From: a virus
IMG/VR virus record: IMGVR_UViG_3300015607_002611
Location: 9,143-73,142 of that record
Direction: 5' to 3' (one strand)
DNA length: 64,000 bases
The notes under the pieces were generated by a model. That model saw only the letters and a list, made by a program, of their open reading frames with translations. It was not told the origin of the DNA and did no database searches. Of this stretch, positions 13,308-45,279 are shown piece by piece. A program made the position numbers and the translations under genes. The stretch's first letter is position 1. Each line of letters begins with the position of its first letter.

Positions 13308-13308
13308 T

Positions 13309-15817: not shown

Positions 15818-16671
15818 TGTCTTATATTACTCCTAGAATAATAAAATTTGGTAAACCTGAAAATCATAGAAGTTCAATTGGACATGCAATGTATAATTAT
15901 ATAACAGCACTTTTGCTAGCTAAAAAATATAATTTAACATTCTTACATTCTCCATTTATAGCTGATTGTGAAAGATTTGAGAATGTATTAGGTTTAAATA
16001 AATTCTTTCCTAATTTTAAGACAATTAGAATGCCTGAATATAAGCTTCTACCTTATTGTAATTTTGGTCATCCTAATTTAGATGAAAATAAATATAATAA
16101 TAGTTTAAGGAGACTTTCAATTGAAATAAATAAGAAGACTACTAAAACTATATTCTTTACAAATAATCCAGCTGAACAGTTTCCGGGATTATTAATAAGA
16201 GAATCTGAATATCTTTCAAATATATTATCTGAAGCTTATTGGTCAGTTAATGGAAAATCAAAATTATATGATTATTCTAAAACAAACGTAGCTATCCATA
16301 TAAGAAGGGGTGATATCACTGAAAAAGAAAACACTGATAGATGGAAGGATAATAATCATTATATTAATATTATTAATAGTATAAAATCTAAAATACCTGA
16401 TGCTAGATTCTATATATTTTCTGAAGGTGAAATTGGAGATTTTAAAGAATTTAGTAAAGATGTTAATTTAATTTTAAATGGTAGTGATATTGAAGCATTT
16501 AATAATTTAGCAAGTTCTGATATATTAGTAACAGGACAGAGTACATTCTCTACAATTATTTCATATATTAATACAGGAACTATTGTTTATACACCATGTT
16601 TGAGTTTTACATTATTTGATGGTTTCAGTAAAAGGTTTATAAGATACGATAAAATAGATGAACAATTATAA
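15817..16671 (+). CDS. Fucosyltransferase-fold glycosyltransferase (GT11/GT23-like)
   Basis: 'VAIHIRRGDI' fits GT11 motif I (HVRRGDY). N-terminal 'SIGHAMYNYITALLLAKKYN' fits the GxLGNQMFxYA pattern. Confidence 0.45.
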   Translation: MSYITPRIIKFGKPENHRSSIGHAMYNYITALLLAKKYNLTFLHSPFIADCERFENVLGLNKFFPNFKTIRMPEYKLLPYCNFGHPNLDENKYNNSLRRLSIEINKKTTKTIFFTNNPAEQFPGLLIRESEYLSNILSEAYWSVNGKSKLYDYSKTNVAIHIRRGDITEKENTDRWKDNNHYINIINSIKSKIPDARFYIFSEGEIGDFKEFSKDVNLILNGSDIEAFNNLASSDILVTGQSTFSTIISYINTGTIVYTPCLSFTLFDGFSKRFIRYDKIDEQL

Positions 16672-17497
16672 AATATATTTTACTACTAATTGGAGTATAA
16701 GACATGATGTTTTCATGGATTACCTAAAAAGACAAACCCCTGACTTTTCAGGTTCTTGGGATAATATCATAATGGTTAATAAACAAAGAGAAGCTGACTA
16801 TATTATAGTACAAGATGGTTCAGATGAAAAGATCGAAGATATGTCTAAGGTTATATTTTTTGGACGTGAACCTAAACATATTAAATATTATTGTTGGGAC
16901 GATAAATTATGTAATAAAGTATATCATCATGAAAATAATAATTGCTGGCTTCCGCAAACTTGGTGGGTTGGTTTAAATTATAATGAGTTAATTAACTTAA
17001 AATATTTAAAGAATAAAAAATTTAGTATAATTGACTCTGGTAAAATATCTAAAGATGGTCATAAGAATAGATTAAACTTCATCAAATTATTTATAAATCA
17101 ATATCCAAATGATGTAGACTTATATGGTAAAATAAATGGAAATATATTACCCGAAAGAGATAAAAGCCTTGCATTATTAAATTATAAATATACTTTATCA
17201 ATTGAAAATGGAGTAACTGATAATTACTTCTCTGAAAAATTTGTAGACCCGTTATTATGTTTAACATTACCAATATATCATGGATGTAGAAGAATAGATA
17301 AATACTTTCCTAAAGGTTCTTATTATAAAATTGATATAAATAAGTCAGGTACTATTCAAGAAATATATAATTTGATTAACAGTAATTATGCTGAAGAGAA
17401 TATAGAAAATATTAAAGAAGCTAGAGATTTAATATTAAAAAAGTACAATATTTGGCCAACAGTAAAATTAGCAATAGAAAATAATATTAAAATATAA
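16658..17497 (+). CDS. GT10-like alpha-1,3-fucosyltransferase-fold glycosyltransferase
   Basis: 'YKYTLSIENGVTDNYFSEKFVDPLLCLTLPIYHG' matches the FucT motif (FxLxFENS...YxTEKxxxxL...PVxxG). Confidence 0.5.
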   Translation: MNNYKIYFTTNWSIRHDVFMDYLKRQTPDFSGSWDNIIMVNKQREADYIIVQDGSDEKIEDMSKVIFFGREPKHIKYYCWDDKLCNKVYHHENNNCWLPQTWWVGLNYNELINLKYLKNKKFSIIDSGKISKDGHKNRLNFIKLFINQYPNDVDLYGKINGNILPERDKSLALLNYKYTLSIENGVTDNYFSEKFVDPLLCLTLPIYHGCRRIDKYFPKGSYYKIDINKSGTIQEIYNLINSNYAEENIENIKEARDLILKKYNIWPTVKLAIENNIKI

Positions 17498-17498
17498 A

Positions 17499-17909
17499 AT
17501 GGAAAAAATTTATTCTAAAGTACAACCTGATAAATTATTACATATAATAGTAAGAAAGTCTGATATGGTTCCAGGAAGAACTGATATTGTAGACCCTGAG
17601 CATTTCATACAATGTTCCATGTTAAATATGGAAAAAGGTAAAACATTTAAACCACATAAACATATTTGGAAAGAGAGAAAAAGAGATGTAATAGCACAAG
17701 AAAGTTGGGTTGTTATACAAGGAAGTGTTAAATGTATATTTTATGATATTGATGATACATTAATAGCCGAGCCTGTATTATATCCCGGTGATTCAAGTTA
17801 TACACTTGAAGGTGGTCATAATTATGAAATACAAGAAGATAATACTCTTGTGTATGAATATAAGACAGGGCCTTATGAAGGTCAAATATTTGATAAAACA
17901 TTTTTATAA
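17499..17909 (+). CDS. Cupin-fold protein, possible NDP-ketosugar isomerase/epimerase
   Basis: Cupin motif 'PHKHIWKERKRDVIAQESWVVIQG'. Context is between the GTs/MTases and Gmd. Confidence 0.35.
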   Translation: MEKIYSKVQPDKLLHIIVRKSDMVPGRTDIVDPEHFIQCSMLNMEKGKTFKPHKHIWKERKRDVIAQESWVVIQGSVKCIFYDIDDTLIAEPVLYPGDSSYTLEGGHNYEIQEDNTLVYEYKTGPYEGQIFDKTFL

Positions 17910-17910
17910 T

Positions 17911-18459
17911 ATGGAAAAAAATAAAATTAACTTAGGTTGCGGTTGGAGAAATTTTGGCAAAGAATGGCTTCATATTGATAATGGTGATTACGATCATTTA
18001 GATATTAAATGTGATGTAAAGAAATTAGATTTACCTGATAATTACGCAGATTTAATTTACGTATCACATGTTATCGCATATTTTGATAGAAATGAAATAT
18101 GTGATGTTTTAAAAGAATGGAATAGGGTTTTAAAACCAGGTGGTACTTTAAGAATAGCTACGCCAGATTTTGAAGCAATGAGTAAACTTTATGTACAAGG
18201 GAGGATAGAACTTAAACAGATGTTGGGTCCAATGTATGGTAAAATGCCAATGGATGATATTACAATTTATCATAAAACTACTTATGATTTTCATTCATTA
18301 GCTACAGTATTATTAGATAATGGATTCAGGTATGTAAAAACATATAACTGGAAACAAACTGAACATGCACAATTTGATGACCATTCACAGGCTTATATTC
18401 CTCATATGGATAAAGAGAATGGTACACTTATTAGCTTGAATGTCGAATGTATTAAATAA
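17911..18459 (+). CDS. Class I SAM-dependent methyltransferase
   Basis: 'INLGCGWRNFGKEWLHIDN' (motif I) and 'WNRVLKPGGTLRIATP'. The ATG at 17911 is preferred to the overlapping track start at 17788. Confidence 0.6.
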   Translation: MEKNKINLGCGWRNFGKEWLHIDNGDYDHLDIKCDVKKLDLPDNYADLIYVSHVIAYFDRNEICDVLKEWNRVLKPGGTLRIATPDFEAMSKLYVQGRIELKQMLGPMYGKMPMDDITIYHKTTYDFHSLATVLLDNGFRYVKTYNWKQTEHAQFDDHSQAYIPHMDKENGTLISLNVECIK

Positions 18460-18460
18460 A

Positions 18461-19078
18461 ATGACAGAAGTAAATATAAATCTACTTAAAGATTCTTTTG
18501 ATAAAAGAAAGATTGATACAATAAGATATATTGTAAACGAATATGTTTCCAAGGGAGATGGGATTATTAATAAGAAATATTTTCAAGAATTAGGTAGTTA
18601 TACAAAAAGAAATGATGATACTGTAGATATAAATCTTTCAAATTATTTTTCTAGATTATTATATGCTCCTAATTTTGCAATATTAGATTATGTTATTAAA
18701 AATATAAATCAATTAAAAGATTTAAAATTCATTGATAATGGCGCTGGATTAGGTATACTTTCTATATTCTTAAAAACATTAAATATTGATTGTTATAATT
18801 ACGATAATTTTTCACAAATTAAAGATGTTACTTTTCATGAGAATGTTTTAAATAAAATGAATATTAAAATTCATCCTGTTTCTAGTCAAATACCAAATGA
18901 CTGTGAGGTATTAGTATGCTCTGGCATTTGGATTGATAATCCAGAATTCTTAAAAAGAAATTTACAATATGTTCTTTTAGATAGAAACCATGAAGATAAG
19001 GGAATTGGTCCTGAATTAACATCAGAATTTACTTTACTTGATAAATATAATACAATTAATGTTTATGGAAGAAAATAA
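18461..19078 (+). CDS. Methyltransferase-like protein (weak)
   Basis: 'FIDNGAGLGILSIFL' resembles the SAM-binding motif I. The ATG at 18461 is preferred. Confidence 0.3.
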   Translation: MTEVNINLLKDSFDKRKIDTIRYIVNEYVSKGDGIINKKYFQELGSYTKRNDDTVDINLSNYFSRLLYAPNFAILDYVIKNINQLKDLKFIDNGAGLGILSIFLKTLNIDCYNYDNFSQIKDVTFHENVLNKMNIKIHPVSSQIPNDCEVLVCSGIWIDNPEFLKRNLQYVLLDRNHEDKGIGPELTSEFTLLDKYNTINVYGRK

Positions 19079-19718
19079 AATTAAACCAATAGATTTTAGT
19101 TCAGTAACTGAATTTGAAAATCAAGTAGCCTCATTCTTTGGTGCTAAATATGCGATTGCTGTTGATTCATGTACACATGGTATAGAATTATGTTTGAGGC
19201 ATGTTAAAGCTGATTATATGTTTTCACCTAAGCAAACATATATCTCAGTTCCATTTCTTGCTAATAAACTAGGAATAGACTTAGTATGGACTGATTATGT
19301 ATGGCAGGATTGGTATACAGTATGGGGGAAAGGTGATTCTGGATTACAAAGAGTGTTAGATAAAAGAATTATAGACGCAGCTGTACTTTGGAAAAAGGAT
19401 AGTTATTTACCAGGCACATTTATGTGTCTTAGTTTTCAATATCAAAAACATTTAAGTTTAGGTAGAGGCGGAATGATTTTATGTGATGATGAAGTTTCTG
19501 CATTAGAATTAAAAAAGATGTCATATGATGGTAGATTACCAAATATACCATGGCGTTCACAAAACATTGATATATTTGGATATCATTATTATATGACACC
19601 TGAAACAGCATCAGTGGGATTACAAAAATTACCAGAGGCTATAGCAACTAAACCAAAACAATGGGTCATGAGTGATTGGCCAGATTTAACAAAAATGAAA
19701 GTATTTAATAATGAGTAA
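19059..19718 (+). CDS. DegT/DnrJ/EryC1-type sugar aminotransferase-like, short form
   Basis: 'FENQVASFFGAKYAIAVDSCTHGIELCL' (N-terminal signature) and 'LSFQYQKHLSLGRGGMIL' (PLP-Lys motif SFhxxKxxxxGxGGxI). Only ~220 aa, against ~370 for typical members. Confidence 0.45.
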   Translation: MFMEENKIKPIDFSSVTEFENQVASFFGAKYAIAVDSCTHGIELCLRHVKADYMFSPKQTYISVPFLANKLGIDLVWTDYVWQDWYTVWGKGDSGLQRVLDKRIIDAAVLWKKDSYLPGTFMCLSFQYQKHLSLGRGGMILCDDEVSALELKKMSYDGRLPNIPWRSQNIDIFGYHYYMTPETASVGLQKLPEAIATKPKQWVMSDWPDLTKMKVFNNE

Positions 19719-20700
19719 GAAAGCATTTATCACAGGAATTAATGGACAGGATGGTAGTTATTTAGCTGAATATCTATTATCATTGGGTTACGATGTACAT
19801 GGAATGATGAGACGTAATTCAGTACCTGAAAATCAAACAATGAGAATTGAATCAATTGAAAAAAATATTCAAACCCATTATGGTGATTTATTAGACCAAA
19901 CTTCAATCGAAAGATTATTAACAGAAATTAAGCCAGACGAAATTTATAATCTTGCAGCTCAGTCTCATGTAAGAATTAGTTTTGATGTACCTCAATTTAC
20001 AGTACAAACTAATTCAGTAGGTGTAATTAATATGCTAGAAGCATATAAAAGAATTGTACCAGATGCTAGATTTTATCAAGCAAGTTCATCTGAAATGTTT
20101 GGATTATCAGTAGAAGAAGATAATTTCCAAAGAGAAAGTACTATAATGAATCCTGTATCTCCTTATGGATGTAGTAAAGTATTTGGGTATAACGTAGTAA
20201 GACATTATAGAAGAGCTTATAATATACATGCTAGTAATGGTATTTTATTTAATCATGAAAGTCCTCGTAGAGGTTCTAACTTTGTAACTAATAAAGTAGT
20301 TAAGGGTGCGTGTATGATTAAGTTGGGTTTAGATAATAAGTTAGAATTAGGTAACATGGATTCTTATAGGGATTGGGGTCACTCTAAAGATTATGTTAAA
20401 GGGATGCATATGATTTTAAATCATGACGTTGCTGATGATTTTATTCTTTCGACAATGGAAACACATTCTGTTAGGGAAATGTGTGAAGTTGTATTTAGTT
20501 ATTTGGGTTTAAATTATCAAGATTATGTAGTTCAAAATCCTAAATATTTAAGACCTGAAGAATTACCTTATCTTAAAGGTGATTCTACTAAAGCAAGGAC
20601 AATTTTAGGTTGGAAACCAGAATATACATTTGAAGCTTTAATGCATGAAATGTGTGACCATTGGTTAGATGTATTACAAGGTAAAAAATCTTATAGATAA
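19711..20700 (+). CDS. gmd: GDP-mannose 4,6-dehydratase
   Basis: Near-full-length similarity to Gmd: 'KKAFITGINGQDGSYLAEYLL', 'YNLAAQSHV', 'FYQASSSEMFG', 'NGILFNHESPRRG', 'LGNMDSYRDWGHSKDYV'. Confidence 0.92.
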   Translation: MSKKAFITGINGQDGSYLAEYLLSLGYDVHGMMRRNSVPENQTMRIESIEKNIQTHYGDLLDQTSIERLLTEIKPDEIYNLAAQSHVRISFDVPQFTVQTNSVGVINMLEAYKRIVPDARFYQASSSEMFGLSVEEDNFQRESTIMNPVSPYGCSKVFGYNVVRHYRRAYNIHASNGILFNHESPRRGSNFVTNKVVKGACMIKLGLDNKLELGNMDSYRDWGHSKDYVKGMHMILNHDVADDFILSTMETHSVREMCEVVFSYLGLNYQDYVVQNPKYLRPEELPYLKGDSTKARTILGWKPEYTFEALMHEMCDHWLDVLQGKKSYR

Positions 20701-20963
20701 TGAAATTTGAAATATGGTCAGTAGGTATAGATGAAGGCGTATATACGCCTATGTTTAAGGAATTAGAGTCAGATGACTTTTCATATATTTATGCAACATT
20801 TTTAAAATTATCAAAGAATGGTATGTATATGATTACTACTAAGACTTTATTGCCAGCAAACGAGCTTAAAAATCAAAAGTGGATTTATGAATCACCTGAC
20901 GGTGGTAAAACAATTTATAAAAGAAAACGTTTAACAAATGATAGAGAACAACATGAGGGATAG
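20700..20963 (+). CDS. Hypothetical protein
   Basis: ATGA-coupled to gmd. Confidence 0.3.
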   Translation: MKFEIWSVGIDEGVYTPMFKELESDDFSYIYATFLKLSKNGMYMITTKTLLPANELKNQKWIYESPDGGKTIYKRKRLTNDREQHEG

Positions 20964-21549
20964 AATAAAAAATCTAATACAACAAGAATTAGATGCTATC
21001 AAAAATATTCCTATAAATGATACATTTGAAGATGCAGTTGAATTAATATACAATCATGTACATTTAGGAAGAGGTAAAATAGTAGCAGCAGGCATTGGAA
21101 AAGCTGGCCATATTGCACATAATATTGCCATGACATTATCTTCGACAGGGACGAGAGCAGTATTCATTCATCCTACCGAGGCACAACATGGTGATTTAGG
21201 TATATTAGGAAGAAATGATATTTTATTACTTGCTTCTAATTCAGGTAAAACAAGAGAAGTTTTAGAATTTATACAATTAGCAAAAAACATTTTTCCAGAC
21301 ATCAAAGTTATTTCAATTACTGGAAATAAAGAAAGTGAATTAGCTAATAAATCAACTGTAAATTTATATACAGGCGGTGCTAAAGAAATAGATAAATTTC
21401 AATTAGTCCCAACTACATCAACAACACTTATGACAATTATTGGAGATATTTTAGTTGTCGAATTAATGGATAAAATTAATTTTACTAAAGAACAATACCA
21501 ATTATTACATCATTCTGGATATATTTCTGAACAGCTAAAAAACAAATAA
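20938..21549 (+). CDS. kdsD: Arabinose-5-phosphate isomerase, SIS-domain only (KdsD/KpsF-like)
   Basis: 'GKIVAAGIGKAGHIAHNIAMTLSSTGTRAVFIHPTEAQHGDLGIL...LLLASNSGKTREV' parallels KdsD 'GMGKSGHIGRKMAATFASTGT...HPGEAAHGDLGM'. Confidence 0.8.
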   Translation: MIENNMRDRIKNLIQQELDAIKNIPINDTFEDAVELIYNHVHLGRGKIVAAGIGKAGHIAHNIAMTLSSTGTRAVFIHPTEAQHGDLGILGRNDILLLASNSGKTREVLEFIQLAKNIFPDIKVISITGNKESELANKSTVNLYTGGAKEIDKFQLVPTTSTTLMTIIGDILVVELMDKINFTKEQYQLLHHSGYISEQLKNK

Positions 21550-21550
21550 T

Positions 21551-22330
21551 ATGGAAAAACATTTTAAATTAATAGCAGGACCCTGTTTAATTGAAGACGA
21601 AGAAGTAGCTTTAAGAATTGCTGCAGAATGTAAATATATTGCTGATAGACTAGGAATAGAATATTACTTTAAAGGTTCTTATAAAAAAGCAAATCGAACT
21701 AAGCTTTCTAGTGTATCTTCTGGAATGACAGAAGAACGAGCTTTACAAGTTTTACATAAAATTAAAACTGTATTAGGTATACCTGTCGTTACAGATGTTC
21801 ATGAAACACATGATTGTGAAAAAGCTGCAAAATACGTAGACGTATTACAGATACCAGCATTTCTTTGTAGACAGACTGAGCTGCTTATAGCAGCAGGTAA
21901 AACTGGTAAGATAGTTAACATTAAGAAAGGTCAATTTATGGCACCAGAGTCAATGATTCATGCTCAAGAGAAAGTATATTCAACAGGTAATAAAAACGTT
22001 TGGCTTACAGAACGTGGAACTACATTTGGATATGAATATCTTGTAGTTGATATGACTTCAATGCCTAAAATGAGAAAGTTTAATGATAATGTTATAATGG
22101 ATTGTACACATTCAGTCCAAAGACCAAATCAGAACGGCCAGACAGGTGGAGACCCTGAAATGATAGAAACTATTGCTTTAAGTTCTATTGCAGCTGGCGC
22201 AACAGGATTATTCTTAGAAGTACATCCTGAACCTTGGAAATCTGGAAGTGATTCAACTAACATATTACAGATTGATAAATTAGAAGGTATTTTAGAGAAA
22301 TGTATTAAGGTTAAACAAGCCTTAAAATAA
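21551..22330 (+). CDS. kdsA: 3-deoxy-8-phosphooctulonate (Kdo-8-P) synthase
   Basis: 'GPCLIE', 'YFKGSYKKANRT', 'VVTDVHE', 'VDVLQIPAFLCRQTEL', 'VNIKKGQF', 'ERGTTFGY', 'DCTHSVQ' and 'LFLEVHPEP' are all KdsA signatures. Confidence 0.9.
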   Translation: MEKHFKLIAGPCLIEDEEVALRIAAECKYIADRLGIEYYFKGSYKKANRTKLSSVSSGMTEERALQVLHKIKTVLGIPVVTDVHETHDCEKAAKYVDVLQIPAFLCRQTELLIAAGKTGKIVNIKKGQFMAPESMIHAQEKVYSTGNKNVWLTERGTTFGYEYLVVDMTSMPKMRKFNDNVIMDCTHSVQRPNQNGQTGGDPEMIETIALSSIAAGATGLFLEVHPEPWKSGSDSTNILQIDKLEGILEKCIKVKQALK

Positions 22331-22331
22331 T

Positions 22332-22868
22332 ATGGCCAAAGTTTTAGAAAACATTAAAGGTACTCATGAATATTCAATACTTGTTGAATACATGAAACAA
22401 TTACAATATGATAAGTTAGTACACTCATCATATGCACCTAAGAGATTAGAAAAATGGTTCGGTTATTCATCTAATCTCCAGTCTATTAAAGATGGTAGAC
22501 ATGAATTAAAATTCATTGAAACAATACCTTACGTTTTCAATAGAATTAAAAACGATTATTATCCAGAATCTGATTCAATTTTAATTTGTAAAGGTGAAAA
22601 ACCAGATTCTGATACTTCAATTTCAAACCATAGAGACCACGGATGCTTTTTAGCAAAAGCTGTTATGTTAAATATTGGAATTTCTACATATACTGAAACT
22701 GATTATAATGGCTTAGTTAAATTATACGAACTGAATGATGGTGATATAATTGAAATTGATACAAAGATAATTCATGCATCAAGTCAAATAAGTGACCTGA
22801 GATTAAATGCAACTTTAAGAAAAGTTAGACCTGAATTTTTACCACGAAAAACAAACAATTTATTTTAA
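22332..22868 (+). CDS. Hypothetical protein, possible Fe(II)/2-oxoglutarate dioxygenase fold
   Basis: 'HRDHG' (HxD) with downstream 'IIEIDTKIIHAS' (second His). There is no HAD DxDG motif, so it is not KdsC. Weak. Confidence 0.25.
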   Translation: MAKVLENIKGTHEYSILVEYMKQLQYDKLVHSSYAPKRLEKWFGYSSNLQSIKDGRHELKFIETIPYVFNRIKNDYYPESDSILICKGEKPDSDTSISNHRDHGCFLAKAVMLNIGISTYTETDYNGLVKLYELNDGDIIEIDTKIIHASSQISDLRLNATLRKVRPEFLPRKTNNLF

Positions 22869-23617
22869 TGAGAACATTAGGAGTTATACCAGCAAGATAC
22901 GCTTCGACTAGATTGCCAGCTAAACCATTAGCTAAAATTAATGGTAAAACAATGATTGAATGGGTTTATGATGCTGCAATACAATCTGATTTAGATGAAG
23001 TTGTAGTTGCAACAGAAGATATTAAAATTTTTGATTACTGTAGTACTGTAGATATTAGAGTAGTTATGACTAGCCCAAATCACGTTTCAGGGACTGAAAG
23101 AATAATTGAAGTAACTAAAATGGAAGGTTACGATGATTTCGATATTATCGTTAATATACAAGGTGATGAACCGATGATTACTCCAAAAGATATTAATGAA
23201 CTTATTAATTCGATGAAAAATTGGCAATCAGTTTATCCAAATACAATTGGAACATTAGTTACTCTAATACAACCTCACGAATATACACAAAGAAGTTGCG
23301 TTAAAGCTTATCAGAAAGAAAATACTTCAGAAATTATAATGTTTACTCGAAGTAGCTTTTACAACTTCGAGTTAAATGAAGTTAATCGTTTCAAAAAACA
23401 TATTGGCATATATGCTTTTCCATCTAAGATTCTTGAAAACATTTCTGAACTTAAGGATAGAACTACAAATGAGATAGCTGAAAGTTTAGAACAACTTAGA
23501 TGGCTTGATAACGGAATGAGCATAGCAGGAGTTTTCACGTCAAATCAAACTATTTCAATTGATACACCAGAGGATTTAGAAAGAGTCCGTTTAAAATTAA
23601 AACATGAGCATATTTAA
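22868..23617 (+). CDS. kdsB: 3-deoxy-manno-octulosonate cytidylyltransferase (CMP-Kdo synthetase)
   Basis: 'LGVIPARYASTRLPAKPL', 'VVATED', 'SGTERI', 'IVNIQGDEPMI', 'IGIYAF' and 'IDTPEDLERVR' parallel E. coli KdsB throughout. Confidence 0.9.
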   Translation: MRTLGVIPARYASTRLPAKPLAKINGKTMIEWVYDAAIQSDLDEVVVATEDIKIFDYCSTVDIRVVMTSPNHVSGTERIIEVTKMEGYDDFDIIVNIQGDEPMITPKDINELINSMKNWQSVYPNTIGTLVTLIQPHEYTQRSCVKAYQKENTSEIIMFTRSSFYNFELNEVNRFKKHIGIYAFPSKILENISELKDRTTNEIAESLEQLRWLDNGMSIAGVFTSNQTISIDTPEDLERVRLKLKHEHI

Positions 23618-24110
23618 AAAAGTAAGAGAGTTAATTCCAACAATCGATAAATTACGACATGTGATTAAATCAATTAGTTATCGATTTTATTCAACGTGTA
23701 TTACAATTACAATAGCTAGCTTTGTAACAGGTAGTACCAAAACAGCATTTGCTATAGGCAGCGCAGATTTTTTTATAAAGATTTTCACTTATTATATTCA
23801 TGAAAGAATTTGGTTTTATATTCCATTTGGTTTACAAAAGCCAAGAAAAATTCATGCTGAAATTAGTTGGGAACCAAGTATAGAAGTTGGTGCACATGAA
23901 CAAATTGAATTTTTAGAATTTGAAGATAAAGATGTTCGTAAAAGAGTTAAAGTTACTAAATCTATGGAAGGTGTACACCCTATAGTATATAGAGCTTTAT
24001 TATCAACGAAAGATAAAAATACAAATAAGAGATATTCAGATGTTGTTCATGGTAGCAAAGAAGATATCGAAAAATTATTAAATGTTAAAATAAAAGAAGA
24101 TGGAAAATAA
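23604..24110 (+). CDS. Hypothetical membrane protein
   Basis: Two or three hydrophobic helices in the N-terminal half. Confidence 0.3.
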   Translation: MSIFKKVRELIPTIDKLRHVIKSISYRFYSTCITITIASFVTGSTKTAFAIGSADFFIKIFTYYIHERIWFYIPFGLQKPRKIHAEISWEPSIEVGAHEQIEFLEFEDKDVRKRVKVTKSMEGVHPIVYRALLSTKDKNTNKRYSDVVHGSKEDIEKLLNVKIKEDGK

Positions 24111-24315
24111 CATTCCTATAAAATTTAAAGATACTATAATTGGCTATGCTGATTCAGAAGGTAAAATTATCGAAATAATTAATAAAAAATTATGGGATAA
24201 ATTATTTACCAATAATCAAAATGTTTATATTTCAAGTAGGGGTTTAGGTGAAGTTAATAATGAAGGTACAATAATAAATGATAAGAGAATATCATTTGAT
24301 ATTTATGAAAAATAA
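24100..24315 (+). CDS. Small hypothetical protein
   Basis: ORF only. Confidence 0.25.
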   Translation: MENNIPIKFKDTIIGYADSEGKIIEIINKKLWDKLFTNNQNVYISSRGLGEVNNEGTIINDKRISFDIYEK

Positions 24316-24350
24316 TATTCTGGTTTATAGGTATTTCCGGCAATGAATCA

Positions 24351-24359
24351 ATATATAAT
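24351..24359 (+). promoter_or_regulatory. 'ATATATAAT' motif 18 nt upstream of homing-endonuclease-like gene
   Basis: Same motif class as upstream of the other HE genes. Confidence 0.25.
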
Positions 24360-24376
24360 TAAAATAATTTGATTAT

Positions 24377-25231
24377 ATGTACATAAGAAAGTGCCCAACT
24401 TGTCCACGTGAAACTAAATTTAAAAGTAAGAAAGCTTATAATAGAGCAATTGAATCAAACAGAAGCTGTAAACAATGTAGTATAAGAAATAATCTTTCTG
24501 GGTATAGAAATGATGTTTCAAATGGTTTAAAGCCTAATGGATTTTTAAATAAAACACATACAGAAGAATTTAAAAACAGGCTAAGAATAGAAAGAATAGG
24601 TAAAAAAGTTCATAATAGTAAATCTAAATCTAAAATTAGTAAAGCTTTATCCGGTGAAAACAATCCAATGTTTGGTAAATCTTTCTATGATATTTGGGTT
24701 GAAAAATATGGAAAAGAAGTTGCAGATAAAAAGTTAAAAAAATTTAAGTTTAAAATTAGTAAAGCAACTGAAGGTAAAAACAACCCAATGTTCGGTAAAC
24801 CTTCGCCCCAAGGAAGTGGTAACGGTTGGAAAGGTTGGTACAAAGGAACGTTCTTTAGAAGTTTACACGAGCTATCTTTCTTGATTAATTATATAGAAAG
24901 ATTTAAAATGCCATTTGAATCAGGTGAACAAGCTAAATGGGCAATTGAATATAGAAAACCTACAGGTGAAATTGGTACATATTTTTCAGACTATGTTATC
25001 AATGGGAAATATATGGTCGAAATAAAACCTGAAAAACTTAAAAGTAGCCCAACTAATAAAGCTAAACGCAAAGCAGCTGAAAAGTTTTGTAAAGCTAAAG
25101 GTTTAAAATATAAAATGATATCGCCGATATTATTAACTGAAACAAATATCCTATTTTTACATAAAAAGAATATAATTAAATTTACAGACATATATGAAAA
25201 ACGATTCAGAAAGCAATATACATTTTCATAA
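24377..25231 (+). CDS. Homing-endonuclease-like protein: N-terminal zinc finger, NUMOD3-type repeats, C-terminal PD-(D/E)XK-like motif
   Basis: 'CPTCPRE...CKQC', repeated 'ENNPMFGKS' and 'KNNPMFGKP' (NUMOD3-like), and 'FSDYVINGKYMVEIKPEK' (D...ExK). Confidence 0.45.
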   Translation: MYIRKCPTCPRETKFKSKKAYNRAIESNRSCKQCSIRNNLSGYRNDVSNGLKPNGFLNKTHTEEFKNRLRIERIGKKVHNSKSKSKISKALSGENNPMFGKSFYDIWVEKYGKEVADKKLKKFKFKISKATEGKNNPMFGKPSPQGSGNGWKGWYKGTFFRSLHELSFLINYIERFKMPFESGEQAKWAIEYRKPTGEIGTYFSDYVINGKYMVEIKPEKLKSSPTNKAKRKAAEKFCKAKGLKYKMISPILLTETNILFLHKKNIIKFTDIYEKRFRKQYTFS

Positions 25232-25853
25232 TTTAAGTGTTACCCGCGAGATGCGAGAAAAATTAAATGGTCATAAACCGTGTATAATTTGGTTCACTGG
25301 GTACAGCGGAAGTGGAAAATCCACAATAGCTAATATTTTAGATACTTATCTACATAAAGGTGGCTATCACACTTATATCTTAGACGGCGATAATATTCGC
25401 TCAGGTTTAAACAAGAATTTAGGTTTCAGTGACGATGACCGTAAAGAAAACATTCGCCGTATTAGTGAAGTAGCTAAATTATTTGCTGATTCTGGTACAA
25501 TTGTATTAACAGCATTCATTTCACCTTTTATTGAAGATAGACAAATTGCACGTGATATTCTTTCAAAAGATTTCAATTTTATTGAAGTTTATGTTGAAGC
25601 AGATTTAGAAACATGTGAGGCGCGTGACCCTAAAGGTCTTTACAAAAAAGCAAGAGCTGGTCAAATCAAAAACTTTACTGGAATTGATAGTCCTTATGAA
25701 GCTCCTATAAATCCAGAAATAACATTAAAAACTTCCCAGTATAGTCCAGACTTAAGCGCATATACAGTTCTTCATTATTTATACGATAATAATATTTTAC
25801 CTTTAGGACTAAAGCAAGATGCTGTTAATAATTCTAAAACATTAAGTCACTAA
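25194..25853 (+). CDS. cysC: Adenylyl-sulfate (APS) kinase
   Basis: 'IIWFTGYSGSGKSTIA', 'LDGDNIRSGLNKNLGFSDDDRKENIRR', 'VLTAFISP' and 'CEARDPKGLYKKARAGQIKNFTGIDSPYEAP' are near-identical in pattern to E. coli CysC. Confidence 0.93.
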   Translation: MKNDSESNIHFHNLSVTREMREKLNGHKPCIIWFTGYSGSGKSTIANILDTYLHKGGYHTYILDGDNIRSGLNKNLGFSDDDRKENIRRISEVAKLFADSGTIVLTAFISPFIEDRQIARDILSKDFNFIEVYVEADLETCEARDPKGLYKKARAGQIKNFTGIDSPYEAPINPEITLKTSQYSPDLSAYTVLHYLYDNNILPLGLKQDAVNNSKTLSH

Positions 25854-25855
25854 TT

Positions 25856-26077
25856 ATGGCAAAAACACCAAGCACATCAGAACATTTAAACGAAGTTTTA
25901 AGTGATACTCAACAATTAAATGATATTAATTCTAGTATTTTACATGCTGAAAAAACATTAGAGTATTTGAATAATATGTATAAAGAAAAGCCTCAGAATC
26001 CTGTAGGTTCAGCTATTAATGTAGTTGAATTATTAATAATGAATTTAAAAAAATTAAAACCAGTAGCAAAAGATTAA
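25856..26077 (+). CDS. Small hypothetical protein
   Basis: ORF only. Confidence 0.25.
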   Translation: MAKTPSTSEHLNEVLSDTQQLNDINSSILHAEKTLEYLNNMYKEKPQNPVGSAINVVELLIMNLKKLKPVAKD

Positions 26078-26078
26078 T

Positions 26079-26561
26079 ATGAATAATTGGAGTAAAACAA
26101 ATCACGGTGGCCAAAAATTAGCCAAAGTAGAAGATAAGAAGCAATATGCTATCTTTGTAGGAAGATTTCAACCATATCATTATGGTCATATCTCTTTAAT
26201 TGAACAAAAGATTAATGATGGAATCCCTGCTTTAATTATGGTAAGAGATTTACCTGCAGATGAAAAAAATCCATTCACAACTGAACAAACTGTACAGATG
26301 ATTGAAAAATATCATAGTGCAAAAGGTCATGATGTAAAGGTAATGATTATACCTGATATCGAAAGTGTAAATTATGGTAGAGGTGTTGGATATGAAGTAA
26401 ATGAATTTACACCACCTGAGAATATTAGATTTATCTCTGCAACAAAAATCAGAGAGTCTATTAAAACTGGAAATACTGAATGGCATCAAATGGTCCATGA
26501 AAGTATACAAGACGATGTAATAAATTACTTAAAAGAAAACGATCTATTACTTTCTAAATAA
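26079..26561 (+). CDS. nadM: HxGH nucleotidyltransferase, archaeal/NadM-type NMN adenylyltransferase-like
   Basis: 'AIFVGRFQPYHYGHISLIE' matches the archaeal NMNAT signature GRFQPFHKGH. 160 aa. Confidence 0.5.
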   Translation: MNNWSKTNHGGQKLAKVEDKKQYAIFVGRFQPYHYGHISLIEQKINDGIPALIMVRDLPADEKNPFTTEQTVQMIEKYHSAKGHDVKVMIIPDIESVNYGRGVGYEVNEFTPPENIRFISATKIRESIKTGNTEWHQMVHESIQDDVINYLKENDLLLSK

Positions 26562-27057: not shown

Positions 27058-27270
27058 ATGGAAAATAATGTATATAATCATTTAGCAACGTGGGCTAAAC
27101 TTATTAAAGAACAGAATGAAAATCCTAAAAAATCTAATTCAGTTGAATTTGACTTTTTACCAGGTAAAATTTTTCATGGTGTACAAATACTTAATGCTAG
27201 TGATGATTTTAATAAAAACGAACTTAATTTTAAATTAATATACGATCATTGGGAAAATAAATTAGATTGA
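27058..27270 (+). CDS. Small hypothetical protein
   Basis: ORF only. It converges on the antisense HE gene. Confidence 0.25.
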   Translation: MENNVYNHLATWAKLIKEQNENPKKSNSVEFDFLPGKIFHGVQILNASDDFNKNELNFKLIYDHWENKLD

Positions 27271-27861
27271 TTTATTCAATTCAGATTTAATAAATCTATT
27301 AACTGGACCTCTAGGTAAATTTAATGATTTATATATTTTAGCAACATGATATCCTTTTTTATGAAGTTTCCTAATTTCATTTTTATTTTCATTAGATAAT
27401 ACTTCTATTGAACCAGATATTTTCACATGGGGAATATTATTCTTATTGCAATATCTTCTTATATTATGTTTTTTGATTTTTAAAATTCTCCCTATTTCAT
27501 TTATATGAATTCCTTCATTAGCTAATTTTAAAATTTCTATTTCTTTATCTTCAGCAATTGAAGGTTTAGGACCACACTCTCCACCTATTGTACTATTATA
27601 TCCATTATGAAATGAATTATATTTGATTATTTCTATAGTTTCTATTCTTTTAGATTCATCCCACGTCAAATTATCTAATATAATATCCCATTTAAAATTA
27701 TCCTGACCATACTTTCTAATGGCATTATAAAATTTATTTTTAATCTTTTTGACTAAAGCTTTACGTAAATGTCTAGATTTTCTATAATCTAATGAGTGTT
27801 TAGTTCTACCAATATAAACATCTGATGTAATAATATTTGTTACTTTATATACTAATCCCAT
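27262..27861 (-). CDS. GIY-YIG homing endonuclease (free-standing, only antisense gene in window)
   Basis: 'LVYKVTNIITSDVYIGRTKHSLDYRKSRH...YNAIRKYG' is a GIY-YIG signature. The C-terminal DNA-binding region is 'NIRRYCNKNNIPHVK'. An ATATATAAT-like motif sits upstream on the minus strand (27862-27885). Confidence 0.85.
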   Translation of the reverse strand: MGLVYKVTNIITSDVYIGRTKHSLDYRKSRHLRKALVKKIKNKFYNAIRKYGQDNFKWDIILDNLTWDESKRIETIEIIKYNSFHNGYNSTIGGECGPKPSIAEDKEIEILKLANEGIHINEIGRILKIKKHNIRRYCNKNNIPHVKISGSIEVLSNENKNEIRKLHKKGYHVAKIYKSLNLPRGPVNRFIKSELNKSI

Positions 27862-27949
27862 AATATATTATATATTGCGTATGGCTTCACATTAAACCCT
27901 ATAATGAAACTTTTACATATTTAACAATATAATAATTTAAACTACTAAT

Positions 27950-29233
27950 ATGGAATTTAAAAGTAATTATAAAAGAATTGCGACATACGAAGGTGTACCT
28001 TCTGAAAATGAAAATGTTTTACTATTATACAGTGGAGGTTTAGATACTTCTGTAATGTTAAAATGGATTCAAGATGTATATAAAGTTAACGTTTATGCAC
28101 TATGTGTTAATATTGGTCAACGTGAAAATTTTGAACCAATTATTGATAAGGCTATAAAAATAGGTGCTAAAGTTTGTGAAGTAGTAGATGCTACTGAAAG
28201 ATACGCTAAAGATGTTTGTCAAGAGGCTATTACATTTAATGCTGATTATGAAGATGGATATCATTTATTTTGTCCATTAGGTCGTATTATGATTTCTCAA
28301 ATTGCAGTTGAATATGCTAATAAATGGAATTGTAAATATATTTGCCACGGTGCAACCGGGAAAGGTAATGACCAGATTCGTTTTGATAATTATATTACAA
28401 CATTAAATCCAAAACTTAAAATTTTAGCTCCTGTTCGTGAATGGGCAATGGGAAGAGAAGAAGAAATTGCATACGCTAAAGAACATAACATTCCAGTTAC
28501 AGCTTCATTAGAAAAGATTTATAGTTATGACGAAAATCTTTGGGGCTGTAGTGCAGAAGGTGGAGAAATTGAAGACTTTAAAAAGATACCACCATTAGAT
28601 AGAATTTTAAAATTTACAGAATTACCTGAAGATAATACTCCTGATGTACCAGATTACGTTACATTAGTTTATCGTATGGGTGAATTAATTAGTATTAATT
28701 ATGGCGGTAAAACGCAAGACTCAAATGAATCTATCAAAGATATGATTACTAGTGCCAATGAAATTGGTAAAAAACATGGAATTGGTATTACACATTTAGT
28801 TGAAGATAGAGTTCTTGGTTTAAAAGTAAGAGGTATTTATGAAGAACCAGGTGCTGAGATATTAATTAAAGCACATAAAGGTTTAGAGAAAGCTGTTTCG
28901 ACAAGAGAAGAAATTCAATTCAAAGAATTAGTTGATAGACAATGGTCACAATTAGTTTATGAAGGTCGCTATTTCCACCCACTTGTTAATTCACTAAGAG
29001 CTTTTGCTAGACAAATGAATTCAAAAGTATCTGGTAAAGTTACCGTTAAATTATTTAAAGGTAGAGCTGAAGTAGTTGCAATTGATTCAAGATATTGTTT
29101 AAACAGTGAAGCATCATCATTCATGAAAGAAAATAGCTTTAATCAGAATGCTTCACCTGGTTTTATTGAACATTTTGGATATTCAGCAAGAACTGCATAC
29201 AATTTAAAGAAACCTGTTAACGAAATTATATAA
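27950..29233 (+). CDS. argG: Argininosuccinate synthase (type I)
   Basis: PP-loop 'LLLYSGGLDTSV', 'HGATGKGNDQIRF', 'DENLWGCSAEGG', 'RGIYEEPGAEIL' and 'GKVTVKLFKG' are collinear with human/bacterial ASS. Confidence 0.9.
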   Translation: MEFKSNYKRIATYEGVPSENENVLLLYSGGLDTSVMLKWIQDVYKVNVYALCVNIGQRENFEPIIDKAIKIGAKVCEVVDATERYAKDVCQEAITFNADYEDGYHLFCPLGRIMISQIAVEYANKWNCKYICHGATGKGNDQIRFDNYITTLNPKLKILAPVREWAMGREEEIAYAKEHNIPVTASLEKIYSYDENLWGCSAEGGEIEDFKKIPPLDRILKFTELPEDNTPDVPDYVTLVYRMGELISINYGGKTQDSNESIKDMITSANEIGKKHGIGITHLVEDRVLGLKVRGIYEEPGAEILIKAHKGLEKAVSTREEIQFKELVDRQWSQLVYEGRYFHPLVNSLRAFARQMNSKVSGKVTVKLFKGRAEVVAIDSRYCLNSEASSFMKENSFNQNASPGFIEHFGYSARTAYNLKKPVNEII

Positions 29234-30489
29234 TGAGTAAAATTTGGGCTAAAGATAATAAAGAAATGAGCAATACTGCAAAGTTCTTTAATTCATTTAC
29301 AACTGGTAATGATTATATTATAGATAGGGATAACTTTCTTTATTTTGATTTAGTTGCTAGTAAAGCCCATGCCTTAACTTTACAAGAAGCTGGTATTTAT
29401 AGTAAAGAAGATTTATTTAAAATAAACAATTTACTAGATATGGCAATGATTACACCAGGTTTAATTGAAGTAACCAAAGAAGATGAAGATTGTCATACTG
29501 CTATAGAAAAGTATTTAACTAAACTTGCTGGAGATTTAGGTAAAAAAATTCATACAGGTCGTAGCAGAAACGACCAATCTTTAACAATGATTAGATTATA
29601 CATGACTACGAAGTTAGGTCAAGTCATGGATTTAGATTGTAATTTAATCGAAACATTAGATAATCTTTCAAAAAGATATAAGGACCAATTGTTTATAGGT
29701 TATTCTCATACTCAACAGGCTATGATTACAACACTAGGACATTATTACAATGCCTTCTGTGAACAAGTTTCAGATGATTGGGATTTATTAGAAAATATTA
29801 AATTCTTAATCGATAAAAGTCCACTAGGCTCAGGCGCTGGATTTGGCTCTCCTGTTAAACTTAATAGAAAATTAAGTGCAAAGAAAATGGGATTTAGAGG
29901 TGTTCAGAATAATAGCCTCTACTGCCAAAATAGTAGAGGTAAGTTTGAACTTCTTTATGTTCAGGGTCTAGGACATGTAATGGAAACATTACAAAAACTT
30001 GCAACTGATATGATACTTTATACAACTAGAGAATTTTCATTCTTTGATGTAAGTGATGATTTATCACAAGGTAGTAGTATGATGCCACAGAAAAAGAATT
30101 TAGATGTATTTGAATTAATAAGAGCTAAAGCTGCAGAGGTAATAAGTTTAGAAGCAAGATTACATTTAATAAATAAGGGTTTACCTTCAGGTTATAATAG
30201 AGATTTACAATTAGTAAAAAATGCTATTGTTGAAGCTACTGAAACAACTTCTGATTGTTTAAGAGCAATGGATTTAGCTTTAAGGAATATTACACCTAAT
30301 GATGCGAATATTAGAAAAGAAATTCGCGAAGATATTTATTCTGCTGATTTAGCGACAATCAAATGTATGGATAATCCTGCTCTTAATTTTCGAGATGTAT
30401 ATAAAGAAATATTAAATGATAAGACTATTTATACACCAGAAGAGATATTAAAACGTCGTGTAAGTGCTGGTTCACCTGGAAATTATTAA
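29233..30489 (+). CDS. argH: Argininosuccinate lyase
   Basis: 'LGKKIHTGRSRNDQ', 'GYSHTQQA', 'SPLGSGAGFG' and fumarate-lyase signature 'GSSMMPQKKNLD'. This is the ArgH-type GSSxMPQKKN, not the PurB-type motif. Confidence 0.9.
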   Translation: MSKIWAKDNKEMSNTAKFFNSFTTGNDYIIDRDNFLYFDLVASKAHALTLQEAGIYSKEDLFKINNLLDMAMITPGLIEVTKEDEDCHTAIEKYLTKLAGDLGKKIHTGRSRNDQSLTMIRLYMTTKLGQVMDLDCNLIETLDNLSKRYKDQLFIGYSHTQQAMITTLGHYYNAFCEQVSDDWDLLENIKFLIDKSPLGSGAGFGSPVKLNRKLSAKKMGFRGVQNNSLYCQNSRGKFELLYVQGLGHVMETLQKLATDMILYTTREFSFFDVSDDLSQGSSMMPQKKNLDVFELIRAKAAEVISLEARLHLINKGLPSGYNRDLQLVKNAIVEATETTSDCLRAMDLALRNITPNDANIRKEIREDIYSADLATIKCMDNPALNFRDVYKEILNDKTIYTPEEILKRRVSAGSPGNY

Positions 30490-33328: not shown

Positions 33329-34075
33329 ATGAAAAGAATTAAAAATCCAGCAATCTATAAAATAGAAAATGCTATAGATGGTAAAATCTATATTGGTTCG
33401 GCTATTGATTATAAAGATAGGTGGGCTAATCATAAATCTACTTTAAATAAAGGAACTCATCATAATAATCATTTACAAAATGCATATCATAAAGATGGTA
33501 TCAATTCATTTAATTATTCTATATTAGAATTCATAAAAATAAAAGATAATTATGATATTAATATAATTAAAAAGATTCTAATTGAAAGAGAGCAATATTA
33601 TTTAGATAATATATTATATGCAAACCAAGACAATAATTTATTTTATGAATTAGGTTATAATAAACGTCGAATTGCAGAAAATAATTTAGGTATAAAAGTA
33701 TCTGAAGAAGGTAGAATTAATATAAGTAAAGCTCATATTGGAATTAAACATAGTATTGAAACAAGAATTAAAATGAGTAAATCACAAAAAATAGCTAAAT
33801 CTAAAAGCACATATAAAATTAGTAAAGAAACTAGAGATAAAATAAGTAAATCACATACGGGTAAAAAACTTACTGAATCTCATAAAAATTTAATTAGTAA
33901 AAATAATGCAAATAATAGAGAATGTAATCAGTATAATAAAGATGGTAAATTTATTAAAAGATGGAACTCTTTAGCATTAGCTGCAAATGAATTAAATATA
34001 ATACAGCAGCATATTTCAGCTGTCTGTAGAGGTAAAAGATCATATGCTGGAAATTATAAATGGGAATATGTATAA
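33329..34075 (+). CDS. GIY-YIG homing endonuclease with NUMOD-like repeats
   Basis: 'PAIYKIENAIDGKIYIGSAIDYKDRWANH'. Repeated 'ISKAHIGIKHSIETRIKMSKSQK' modules. C-terminal HTH-like 'LAANELNI'. Confidence 0.85.
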   Translation: MKRIKNPAIYKIENAIDGKIYIGSAIDYKDRWANHKSTLNKGTHHNNHLQNAYHKDGINSFNYSILEFIKIKDNYDINIIKKILIEREQYYLDNILYANQDNNLFYELGYNKRRIAENNLGIKVSEEGRINISKAHIGIKHSIETRIKMSKSQKIAKSKSTYKISKETRDKISKSHTGKKLTESHKNLISKNNANNRECNQYNKDGKFIKRWNSLALAANELNIIQQHISAVCRGKRSYAGNYKWEYV

Positions 34076-36913: not shown

Positions 36914-37633
36914 ATGATTATTTATAAAATAACTAATACTATTAATAATAAAATTTATATAGGACAAAGTAGCTTAACATTAAAACAGAGAATTAATAGA
37001 CATTTACATCAATCAAGTAAGGATAATCCTAAAATGAAAATTTGTAGAGCTATTAAAAAATATGGATTTTCTAACTTTAAATTTGAAACAATAGAAGATA
37101 ATATAACAAATTTAGATTTATTAAATGAAAGGGAAATGTATTGGATTTCTTTATTAAAAAGTAATAATAAAGAAATAGGTTATAATACTTTACCAGGCGG
37201 CAGATTTAATCATATAATTAAATATAATCCGGGTATGAGTAATAAAAATCATAGTGAAGAATCTAAAGATAAAATTAGAAAAGCATTTAAAGGTAAGAAG
37301 CGACCGCAATCACATATTGATGCAATGAAAAAATATTATTTAGATAATCCTAATAGACCTAAAAGAATTGTTAGTAAAGAAAGTAGAATAAAAATGAGTT
37401 TAAGTAAATCAGGTTCTAATAATCCGTGGTTTGGTAAACAAGGTCATAGATATGGTAAAGGTACTAATATTTATCAATATAATTTAGAAGGTATTTTAAT
37501 TAAAAAATGGGATAATTCAAATATAGCATCTAAGGAACTTAATATTGATAGATTAGCTATTGATAGAAGATGCAAAAAAAAATCAAATAAACCATATATG
37601 GGTTATTTGTGGTCTTATAATAAAAATATATGA
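36914..37633 (+). CDS. GIY-YIG homing endonuclease
   Basis: 'MIIYKITNTINNKIYIGQSS...RINRH', NUMOD-like 'SEESKDKIRKAFKGKKRP' and a C-terminal HTH-like region. Confidence 0.85.
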   Translation: MIIYKITNTINNKIYIGQSSLTLKQRINRHLHQSSKDNPKMKICRAIKKYGFSNFKFETIEDNITNLDLLNEREMYWISLLKSNNKEIGYNTLPGGRFNHIIKYNPGMSNKNHSEESKDKIRKAFKGKKRPQSHIDAMKKYYLDNPNRPKRIVSKESRIKMSLSKSGSNNPWFGKQGHRYGKGTNIYQYNLEGILIKKWDNSNIASKELNIDRLAIDRRCKKKSNKPYMGYLWSYNKNI

Positions 37634-44577: not shown

Positions 44578-44578
44578 A

Positions 44579-44974: not shown

Positions 44975-45003
44975 GAGAGTATATAATAAAATAATTTATT
45001 AAA

Positions 45004-45252: not shown

Positions 45253-45256
45253 TCCG

Positions 45257-45279
45257 AAGCCTCGATATAATCGAGGCTT
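45257..45279 (+). promoter_or_regulatory. Stem-loop (AAGCCTCGAT-ata-ATCGAGGCTT) abutting promoter -33; no U-run
   Basis: 10-bp perfect stem whose 3' arm supplies the CTTTGGGGG element. Confidence 0.4.

Follow-up and report, generated by a model that had tools for sequence, protein, structure and literature searches.

A phage-encoded argininosuccinate synthase and lyase pair, probably an arginine-supply module of large uncultivated phages

A 64,000-nucleotide stretch of viral DNA (positions 9,143 to 73,142 of IMG/VR record IMGVR_UViG_3300015607_002611; hereafter, the window) encodes an argininosuccinate synthase (ArgG) directly followed by an argininosuccinate lyase (ArgH). As a phage auxiliary metabolic module, the pair is rare and previously undescribed, but its component enzymes are ordinary and well known. 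Judging from sequence comparisons, we consider it probable that both enzymes are functional and canonical, and that they serve a large uncultivated phage by boosting arginine supply during infection. The original prediction for this locus described two intact, translationally coupled genes that are AT-rich like the phage, and our open reading frame (ORF) list, reading of the sequence, and base composition agree with that description. The features of the locus are as follows:

27862..27949, + strand: argG leader, 88 nucleotides, AT-rich (sequence read)
27950..29233, + strand: argG, argininosuccinate synthase, 427 amino acids (ORF; Pfam, NCBIfam, and PDB matches)
29229..29235, + strand: TAATG stop/start overlap coupling argG and argH (sequence read)
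29233..30489, + strand: argH, short-form argininosuccinate lyase, 418 amino acids (ORF; Pfam, NCBIfam, and PDB matches; AlphaFold2 model)

The final A of the argG TAA stop codon (29231–29233) is the first base of the argH ATG (29233–29235), and the letters at the junction read ATATAATGAGT. On its 5′ side, the leader abuts a GIY-YIG homing endonuclease gene in divergent orientation (27262–27861, − strand), and reading its 88 nucleotides revealed no Shine-Dalgarno motif. A promoter and terminator scan was uninformative, returning sites no more numerous than in shuffled sequence. The GC content is 0.31 for argG and 0.30 for argH, in keeping with the AT-rich window. At third codon positions (GC3) the values are 0.13 and 0.16, compared with 0.15–0.23 for the other window genes. 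The codon composition of both genes is thus phage-like, with fully ameliorated GC3. Neither gene contains a frameshift or premature stop.

In ArgG, Pfam detects Arginosuc_synth (PF00764) and Arginosuc_syn_C (PF20979), with E values of 6e-54 and 8e-58. Two NCBIfam equivalog cut-offs are passed, those of NF001770 (426.1 bits; cut-off, 334) and TIGR00032 (396.4 bits; cut-off, 268.2), with a match spanning model positions 3–396 of 401. The “full length” of the original prediction therefore holds for ArgG. The “argG-related” exception model, in contrast, scored only 167 bits (cut-off, 425). Matches to argininosuccinate synthase structures in the PDB had E values from 1e-78 to 1e-64, versus 1e-19 for nitrile synthetase (9lei), which has the ArgG fold but a different chemistry. 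The predicted PP-loop YSGGLDTS is located at residues 27–34 (nucleotides 28028–28051), and a second motif, HGATGKGNDQIRF, occupies residues 133–145.

Ligand positions were compared in alignments with solved structures, with 117 relatives plus the Thermus thermophilus enzyme, and with 27 viral-clade sequences. Human ASS1 contacts citrulline through Y87, N123, R127, S189, E191, E270, and Y282; aspartate through T119, N123, and D124; and ATP through the P-loop, R95, G117, S180, and D182 (PMC13289927). In the phage protein, Y104, T136, N140, D141, R144, S201, E203, E285, and Y297 correspond to human Y87, T119, N123, D124, R127, S189, E191, E270, and Y282. The P-loop residues S28, G29, G30, L31, D32, T33, and S34 correspond to human S12–T17, and R112, G134, S192, and D194 to human R95, G117, S180, and D182. 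All of these positions are conserved in the 117 relatives. Across the whole viral clade, the citrulline and aspartate ligands are invariant, as are the ATP ligands except for T33 (Thr or Ser) and the nearly invariant S34 and G134. These comparisons identify ArgG as an argininosuccinate synthase (EC 6.3.4.5) with an intact predicted active site. It shares the SGGLDTS PP-loop, the GATGKGNDQxRF motif, and all ligands with the T. thermophilus (1j1z, 1kor) and human (2nz2) enzymes, and like many bacterial homologs it is paired with argH. Unlike them, it is phage-encoded, and its identity to the cellular sequences found does not exceed about 55%.

One segment differs from the T. thermophilus enzyme, namely, YHLFCPLGR in place of YLLGTSIARP. 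We ruled out a lesion at this site, given that “FCP” for “GTS” is common to 115–117 of the 117 relatives. Because these include free-living Rhodohalobacter and Balneolaceae, the segment is better described as a subfamily trait (Y-H-L-F/G-C-P-L-G-R versus Y-L-L-G-T-S-I-A-R) that is common to Balneolaceae and Candidate Phyla Radiation (CPR) enzymes.

ArgH matches the Pfam family Lyase_1 (E 4e-40), and its PDB matches to argininosuccinate lyase (ASL) and delta-crystallin reach an E value of 1e-56. The AlphaFold2 model was confident (predicted local distance difference test, 88.4; predicted template modeling score, 0.89). In a Foldseek comparison of this model with the PDB, the top 50 matches were all ASL or delta-crystallin, with template modeling scores of 0.80–0.89. 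As modeled, ArgH has the complete three-domain ASL fold. The expected GSSMMPQKKN signature is present at residues 280–289 (nucleotides 30070–30099), and the other conserved regions are TGRSRNDQ (residues 108–115, with SRND at 111–114) and GYSHTQQA (residues 156–163). In the alignment with human ASL and duck delta-crystallin, H88, R112/N113, S158-H159, S281, K287, N289, E294, Y321, Q326, and K329 are kept. They align to H91, R115/N116, T161-H162, S283, K289, N291, E296, Y323, Q328, and K331 of duck delta-2 crystallin, whose catalytic roles we take to be those of the established literature. S158 is a conservative Thr-to-Ser change relative to T161. According to the titles of delta-crystallin PDB entries, the H162N mutant is inactive, and S283A and T161S/D mutants have been studied. 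The key ArgH residues are invariant in a 40-sequence alignment. A check of both genes for inactivating substitutions at catalytic or ligand positions found none.

By the standard of the E. coli or human enzymes, ArgH cannot be called full length, as its C terminus is ~45 residues shorter and no match to the Pfam domain ASL_C2 was found in it. Cellular ArgH proteins of 395–434 residues have the same property. They score 289–325 bits against the ArgH equivalog model TIGR00838 (cut-off, 279.5) while aligning only to about position 386 of 455. Among the matches listed in a scan of genome contigs for the closest cellular relatives, such short forms came from Flavobacteriaceae, SAR86, Novilysobacter, Stenotrophomonas, Calditrichales, and Saccharibacteria, often adjoining argG. 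Because these proteins pass the cut-off without ASL_C2, the domain is dispensable for membership in the ArgH family, and truncation was ruled out as an explanation for the short C terminus. The window ArgH resembles short-form bacterial ArgH in its comparable length, the three fumarase-superfamily regions, the catalytic Ser, His, Lys, and Glu, and the ASL fold. It is at most 44–48% identical to the cellular proteins found.

The pair lies on genuine phage DNA, as the original prediction assumed. Over 9 kb (window 24417–33427), the sequence is 99.9% identical to that of an independent ENA contig, and ArgG followed by a short ArgH recurs in eight further phage contexts (L001, L002, L003, L007, L008, L009, L010, and L095), making nine with the window. 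The related contigs measure 21–223 kb and derive from ENA, Logan, JGI, and IMG/VR samples. The junction is equally tight in L007–L010, ranging from a 1-nucleotide gap to an 11-nucleotide overlap, the exception being L003, where a 136-residue ORF (9588–9998) separates the two genes. In L095, the pair is surrounded by genes for a gp32-like single-stranded DNA-binding protein, RecA, a 5′–3′ exonuclease, DnaB, a class II ribonucleotide reductase, a hydroxymethylase-like protein, a dUTPase, DNA polymerase B, and GroEL. The window itself gives strong PHROG matches and carries T4-type RNA ligases, a Thg1-like enzyme (PHROG E 5e-86), and a polymerase-type exonuclease, along with a sigma-70 factor, four GIY-YIG/NUMOD homing endonucleases, and a dCMP-hydroxymethylase-like gene. 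It contains neither a capsid nor a terminase gene.

In neighbor-joining trees (without bootstrap), the ArgG sequences with verified viral context form one clade, and so do the ArgH sequences. The sister groups are rich in CPR/Patescibacteria in both trees and also include Balneolaceae and Bacteroidetes for ArgG. ArgG identity within the viral clade is 56–98%. Across the proteins shared between contigs, ArgG is among the most conserved at 70% identity, compared with 44% for the exonuclease and 43–45% for the ATP-grasp protein. Taken together, synteny, viral clades, and conservation indicate one old acquisition of the pair, followed by long vertical inheritance in phages under purifying selection.

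The pair is rare in existing collections. When the region was compared by megablast with 50,697 phage records, no match was returned, and tblastn with ArgG and ArgH against the same records gave matches of at most 42% identity. Most of these were short unannotated contigs or records titled as bacterial genomes, and we therefore judged them to be host DNA; among the 50,697 records there was no convincing isolated phage with the pair. Neither ArgG nor ArgH has a family of its own in PHROGs, where the only matches were weak cross-matches of the QueC-like and lyase-like kind. An alignment-based scan found this ArgG clade on only 3 of 2.9 million IMG/VR contigs. Two further IMG/VR contigs, L096 (IMGVR_UViG_3300029641_000070; GC, 0.60) and L097 (IMGVR_UViG_3300025132_006286), encode an unrelated ArgG of 35–37% identity, and ArgH was not found in the viewed stretch of either. 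These may be independent acquisitions or host contamination.

The phage host is probably a member of the Bacteroidota. A Shine-Dalgarno-like 4-mer at −20 to −5 precedes 4 of 80 window ORFs, compared with a random background of 5.6%. Moreover, L003, the closest long relative (198 kb), encodes near ArgG a 1,350-residue SprB/PKD/CHU_C protein with a type IX secretion sorting domain (3731–7783), and L009 encodes a small CHU_C protein (6387–6743). Initiation without a Shine-Dalgarno lead and type IX secretion domains both point to Bacteroidota, and on these two grounds we suggest such a host. The nearest isolated phages are Maribacter phages, which are distant (27% identity), and a conserved 464-residue neighbor has no homolog in isolated phages.

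The conserved residues and family scores favor the canonical conversion of citrulline and aspartate to arginine and fumarate as the likeliest reaction of the pair, in line with the original prediction. In the mechanism that we propose, argG and argH would be co-translated from the overlapping gene pair during infection. ArgG would adenylate the ureido group of L-citrulline and condense it with L-aspartate (ATP to AMP and pyrophosphate), after which ArgH would eliminate fumarate to yield L-arginine. The phage would thereby supply the last two steps of the pathway, including the one reported to be rate-limiting, and would draw on host pools of citrulline and aspartate. Translation of phage proteins would then have arginine at its disposal even where host expression or regulation limits the supply, and relief of arginine limitation during infection is plausible. 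Enzymatic activity, timing of expression, citrulline source, and selective benefit are what we infer from the genes and their contexts. ArgG is reported to be rate-limiting and inhibited by arginine, and overexpression of ArgG or ArgH in Synechocystis accelerates growth (PMC10937788). With a rate-limiting ArgG, the canonical role fits the phage habit of carrying bottleneck enzymes. The same ArgG subfamily also occurs in an argF-argG-argH block of Rhodohalobacter.

Several observations weigh against an arginine-supply function. With 269.0 bits, ArgH falls below the TIGR00838 cut-off, in contrast to the cellular short forms, and its match ends at model position 381 of 455. The orthologs of L003 and L009 (278.9 and 278.1 bits) are about 1 bit under the cut-off as well. 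ArgH also evolves faster than ArgG in the viral clade (53% versus 70% identity). The window proteome is arginine-poor (3.9% Arg and 9.1% Lys), such that an unusually high arginine demand is not evident. Among 60 window ORFs scanned against Pfam, there was no gene that would supply citrulline, so that any benefit would hinge on a presumed host pool. Neither these ORFs nor the Pfam-annotated ±10 kb flanks of L003 and L007–L010 contained another arginine or polyamine gene. The relatives are known as partial genomes, of which ±10 kb or less was viewed in each related contig, and the host assignment is indirect. With respect to ArgH, two viral orthologs score above the cut-off (L007, 311.6 bits; L010, 303.2 bits), and the next-best model outside ArgH, purB, gives 57 bits, with other lyases no higher. 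Its family scores thus mark the window ArgH as the most divergent member of a viral clade that straddles the cut-off, not as a broken gene.

A variant with the same enzymology and a different selective reason is citrulline salvage or host complementation, in which the host lacks or loses the ArgG and ArgH steps. Such a host could be an arginine auxotroph, or its arginine deiminase could break arginine down to citrulline, perhaps in response to starvation or as a defense. The CPR/Patescibacteria-rich sister groups are consistent with this idea, as is the presence of the last two steps alone, with no upstream enzyme in the scanned ORFs. Because a stand-alone argG-argH pair of this subfamily, without other arg genes nearby, is also found in a 1.2-Mb genome (L091), salvage is a live variant. 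Pointing the other way, cellular Flavobacteriaceae genomes have argH (L032, L078), and the Rhodohalobacter block containing the same ArgG subfamily is an ordinary one. The literature searched did not describe arginine depletion as a phage defense, with no search aimed at that directly. On balance, we regard salvage as unlikely, albeit the best placed of the alternatives to arginine supply.

A further alternative, raised for DNA bases in the original prediction, is that arginine, agmatine, or putrescine made with the help of the pair ends up in hypermodified bases, a glycan, or a protein tag, in concert with the hydroxymethylase-like and ATP-grasp genes. The hydroxymethyl-pyrimidine module on which that suggestion drew is real and lies at the start of the window:

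282..3575: pyrimidine C5-modification module, comprising a thymidylate synthase-like ORF, an APH-like kinase, a hydroxymethylase-like ORF, and a conserved 178-residue ORF
1336..2181: APH-like kinase
2168..3037: dCMP/CMP-hydroxymethylase-like ORF (MilA, 94 bits; T4 gp42, 82 bits; ThyA, ≤45 bits)
3039..3575: conserved 178-residue ORF of the modification module

The ORF at 2168–3037 is closer to the CMP 5-hydroxymethylase MilA and to T4 dCMP hydroxymethylase than to thymidylate synthases. The thymidylate synthase-like ORF (350 residues) matches the PHROG “thymidylate synthase” and has no Pfam or PDB match. As a whole, the module resembles published systems for glycosylated cytosines that combine a thymidylate synthase homolog, a sugar kinase, and a glycosyltransferase, in which the phage thymidylate synthase homologs start the cytosine glyco-modifications (PMC13326640). 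The phage DNA may be hypermodified.

The connection of this module to argGH did not fare as well. It is situated 25 kb from the pair in the window, and a hydroxymethylase homolog adjoins ArgG in only one of the nine contexts, L095, where the two overlap by 4 nucleotides and a dUTPase/dCTPase-like gene follows ArgH. In six of the nine contexts, an R2K-type ATP-grasp gene lies a few genes away from ArgGH, on one side or the other, and the same ATP-grasp adjoins a hydroxymethylase homolog in 14 other viral contigs. Those 14 contigs all lack ArgG and ArgH within 10 kb and none matched in the IMG/VR-wide ArgG scan; conversely, in L010, L009, and L095 the viewed flanks of ArgGH contain no such ATP-grasp. 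We therefore ruled out the ATP-grasp as a functional partner. Together with its partner ORF, it switches sides of ArgGH between conserved anchors (3′-phosphoadenosine 5′-phosphosulfate [PAPS] genes and the exonuclease). As each also occurs without the other, the ATP-grasp and ArgGH are best viewed as independent accessory modules of a variable region. The scanned ORFs and flanks yielded no decarboxylase, agmatinase, ornithine or citrulline enzyme, or amino acid:DNA transferase, so the polyamine and DNA hypermodification role proposed for the pair found no support. Furthermore, the phage pyrimidine-modification literature that we examined involves no arginine (PMC13326640), and ArgG retains all residues that bind the free amino acid. 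The ArgGH, hydroxymethylase-like, and R2K ATP-grasp families are pairwise adjacent in different genomes. A modification role for the pair is nevertheless improbable, and its most specific form, in which ArgGH, the hydroxymethylase-like enzyme, and the ATP-grasp jointly protect the phage by building an arginine-bearing pyrimidine, glycan, or protein tag, is a shade more doubtful still.

The 14 contigs mentioned above (L098–L111; IMG/VR; positions ~8800–12500 of each) belong to a related phage group and encode an R2K ATP-grasp that is 51–57% identical to that of the window (34773–35750). In these contigs, the gene is inserted precisely between the hydroxymethylase-like gene and homologs of the ORF at 3039–3575 and the sigma factor. 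The window ATP-grasp gene is 31 kb from the corresponding hydroxymethylase site and near ArgGH.

Neofunctionalization, in which the pair would apply the same ureido-to-guanidino chemistry to a substrate other than free L-citrulline, is very improbable. The fast divergence of the window ArgH to just below the equivalog cut-off would be compatible with such a change, ArgG-fold enzymes with other chemistry do exist (nitrile synthetase 9lei), and the L095 pair sits among nucleotide metabolism genes. Against this, ArgG lies far above its equivalog cut-offs and far below that of the exception model, and its citrulline and aspartate ligands are invariant in the viral clade. ArgH, for its part, scores 269 bits as argH compared with ≤57 bits for purB and other lyases, and two viral orthologs pass at 303–312 bits. 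Finally, misassembled host DNA or recent, decaying passenger genes might be imagined, given that the matches in the isolated-phage collection look like host DNA filed as phage and that a published contig with a whole arg operon and argR may be a similar case (PMC11549919), yet this explanation is largely refuted already and has next to no remaining probability, owing to the independent assembly, the nine syntenic phage contexts, GC3 at or below that of neighboring phage genes, monophyletic viral clades with 56–98% internal identity, and intact reading frames with invariant catalytic residues.

The pair can be set beside described auxiliary metabolic genes (AMGs). Like phage AMGs that duplicate host bottleneck steps, it is a host-type enzyme pair on a lytic-type phage genome, located among early, metabolic-looking genes and retained under purifying selection across a phage clade. 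Unlike most phage AMGs, it belongs to amino acid biosynthesis, in which AMGs are uncommon. The gene argH appears in a bulk AMG list (PMC12370912), and the literature searched contained no study of phage argG or argH beyond list entries. The viral operational taxonomic unit S27C7391 from human skin carries argC, argD, otc, argG, argH, and argR (PMC11549919). This viral-classified contig likewise has argG and argH; however, the bulk of a bacterial arg operon is present on it, together with the repressor and promoter, and this suggests that it is a host-derived block or prophage flank. In the phages described here, by contrast, the two terminal genes occur alone and with full amelioration, in large lytic-type genomes.

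The PurZ and PurB enzymes of Z-genome phages follow the same logic, in that a carbonyl is activated, the nitrogen of aspartate is added, and fumarate is eliminated by a fumarase-superfamily lyase. PurZ is a homolog of adenylosuccinate synthetase, from a family other than that of ArgG, acts on a nucleotide, and alters DNA chemistry. The phage ArgG and ArgH differ from PurZ in showing no sign of a nucleotide substrate.

Should the enzymes prove active, the last, bottleneck steps of arginine synthesis would be in the hands of a whole clade of large environmental phages, and the catalog of phage metabolic reprogramming would grow from nucleotides, photosynthesis, and sulfur to amino acid biosynthesis. 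The long vertical inheritance in phages (56–98% identity within the clade) argues that the pair must confer a real benefit. Whether arginine availability limits infection of the presumed Bacteroidota hosts would then become a testable question. The locus also offers a clean example for distinguishing genuine amino acid AMGs from host contamination in virome surveys. Because the enzymes are ordinary, no new biochemistry is implied.

Nearly all window genes lie on the + strand, and no tRNA genes were found in the window. Directly 3′ of ArgH (window 30553–32855) are genes for a 192-residue NfeD-like membrane protein and a 563-residue SPFH/flotillin protein. An NfeD-Band_7 pair also stands beside the Rhodohalobacter argF-argG-argH block (L092, 4292–6454). 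As the NfeD/flotillin pair next to argGH occurs only in the window lineage (also L006), we treat its position there as coincidental, and the resemblance is probably coincidence. Other features of the window are as follows:

3612..4409: sigma-70 factor
10691..11089: HSP20
11135..23617: glycan-synthesis island
14692..15276 and 23604..26561: putative sulfate-activation/sulfation module
24377..25231: further endonuclease-like ORF
27262..27861 (− strand), 33329..34075, 36914..37633, and 52421..53125: GIY-YIG/NUMOD homing endonucleases
43098..57681: RNA-repair island

The homing endonuclease genes are not at the same sites in related contigs. The glycan-synthesis island encodes GT29 sialyltransferase-like, GT2, GT25, and GT11/GT10-like transferases, three methyltransferases, a DegT aminotransferase fragment, GDP-mannose 4,6-dehydratase, and a Kdo pathway (SIS/KdsD, KdsA, a further ORF, and KdsB). 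The putative sulfation module consists of a DUF2061 membrane protein, an adenosine 5′-phosphosulfate (APS) kinase (238 bits), a 160-residue HxGH nucleotidyltransferase, and a Sulfotransfer_2 enzyme. The nucleotidyltransferase is NMNAT-like by hidden Markov model comparison and possibly a minimal ATP sulfurylase analog. The DUF2061, APS kinase, and HxGH genes occur in the same order in L001–L003, L007, L008, and L010, and some relatives have a fusion of the APS kinase with a HAD domain. Within the RNA-repair island are a dual-specificity phosphatase-like gene and three RNA ligases (two of the Rnl2/RNA_ligase type and one of the T4 Rnl1 type), together with a Thg1-like tRNA-His guanylyltransferase, a nucleotidyltransferase (phrog_388), a metallophosphoesterase, HAD_SAK_2 and 2H-SAK “Swiss Army Knife” domains, and a P-loop kinase. 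Relatives additionally encode IF3, ferritin, and a GroEL-type chaperonin (L007, 15610–16131 and 18886–19464; L008, 20157–20699; L095, 13809–15419).

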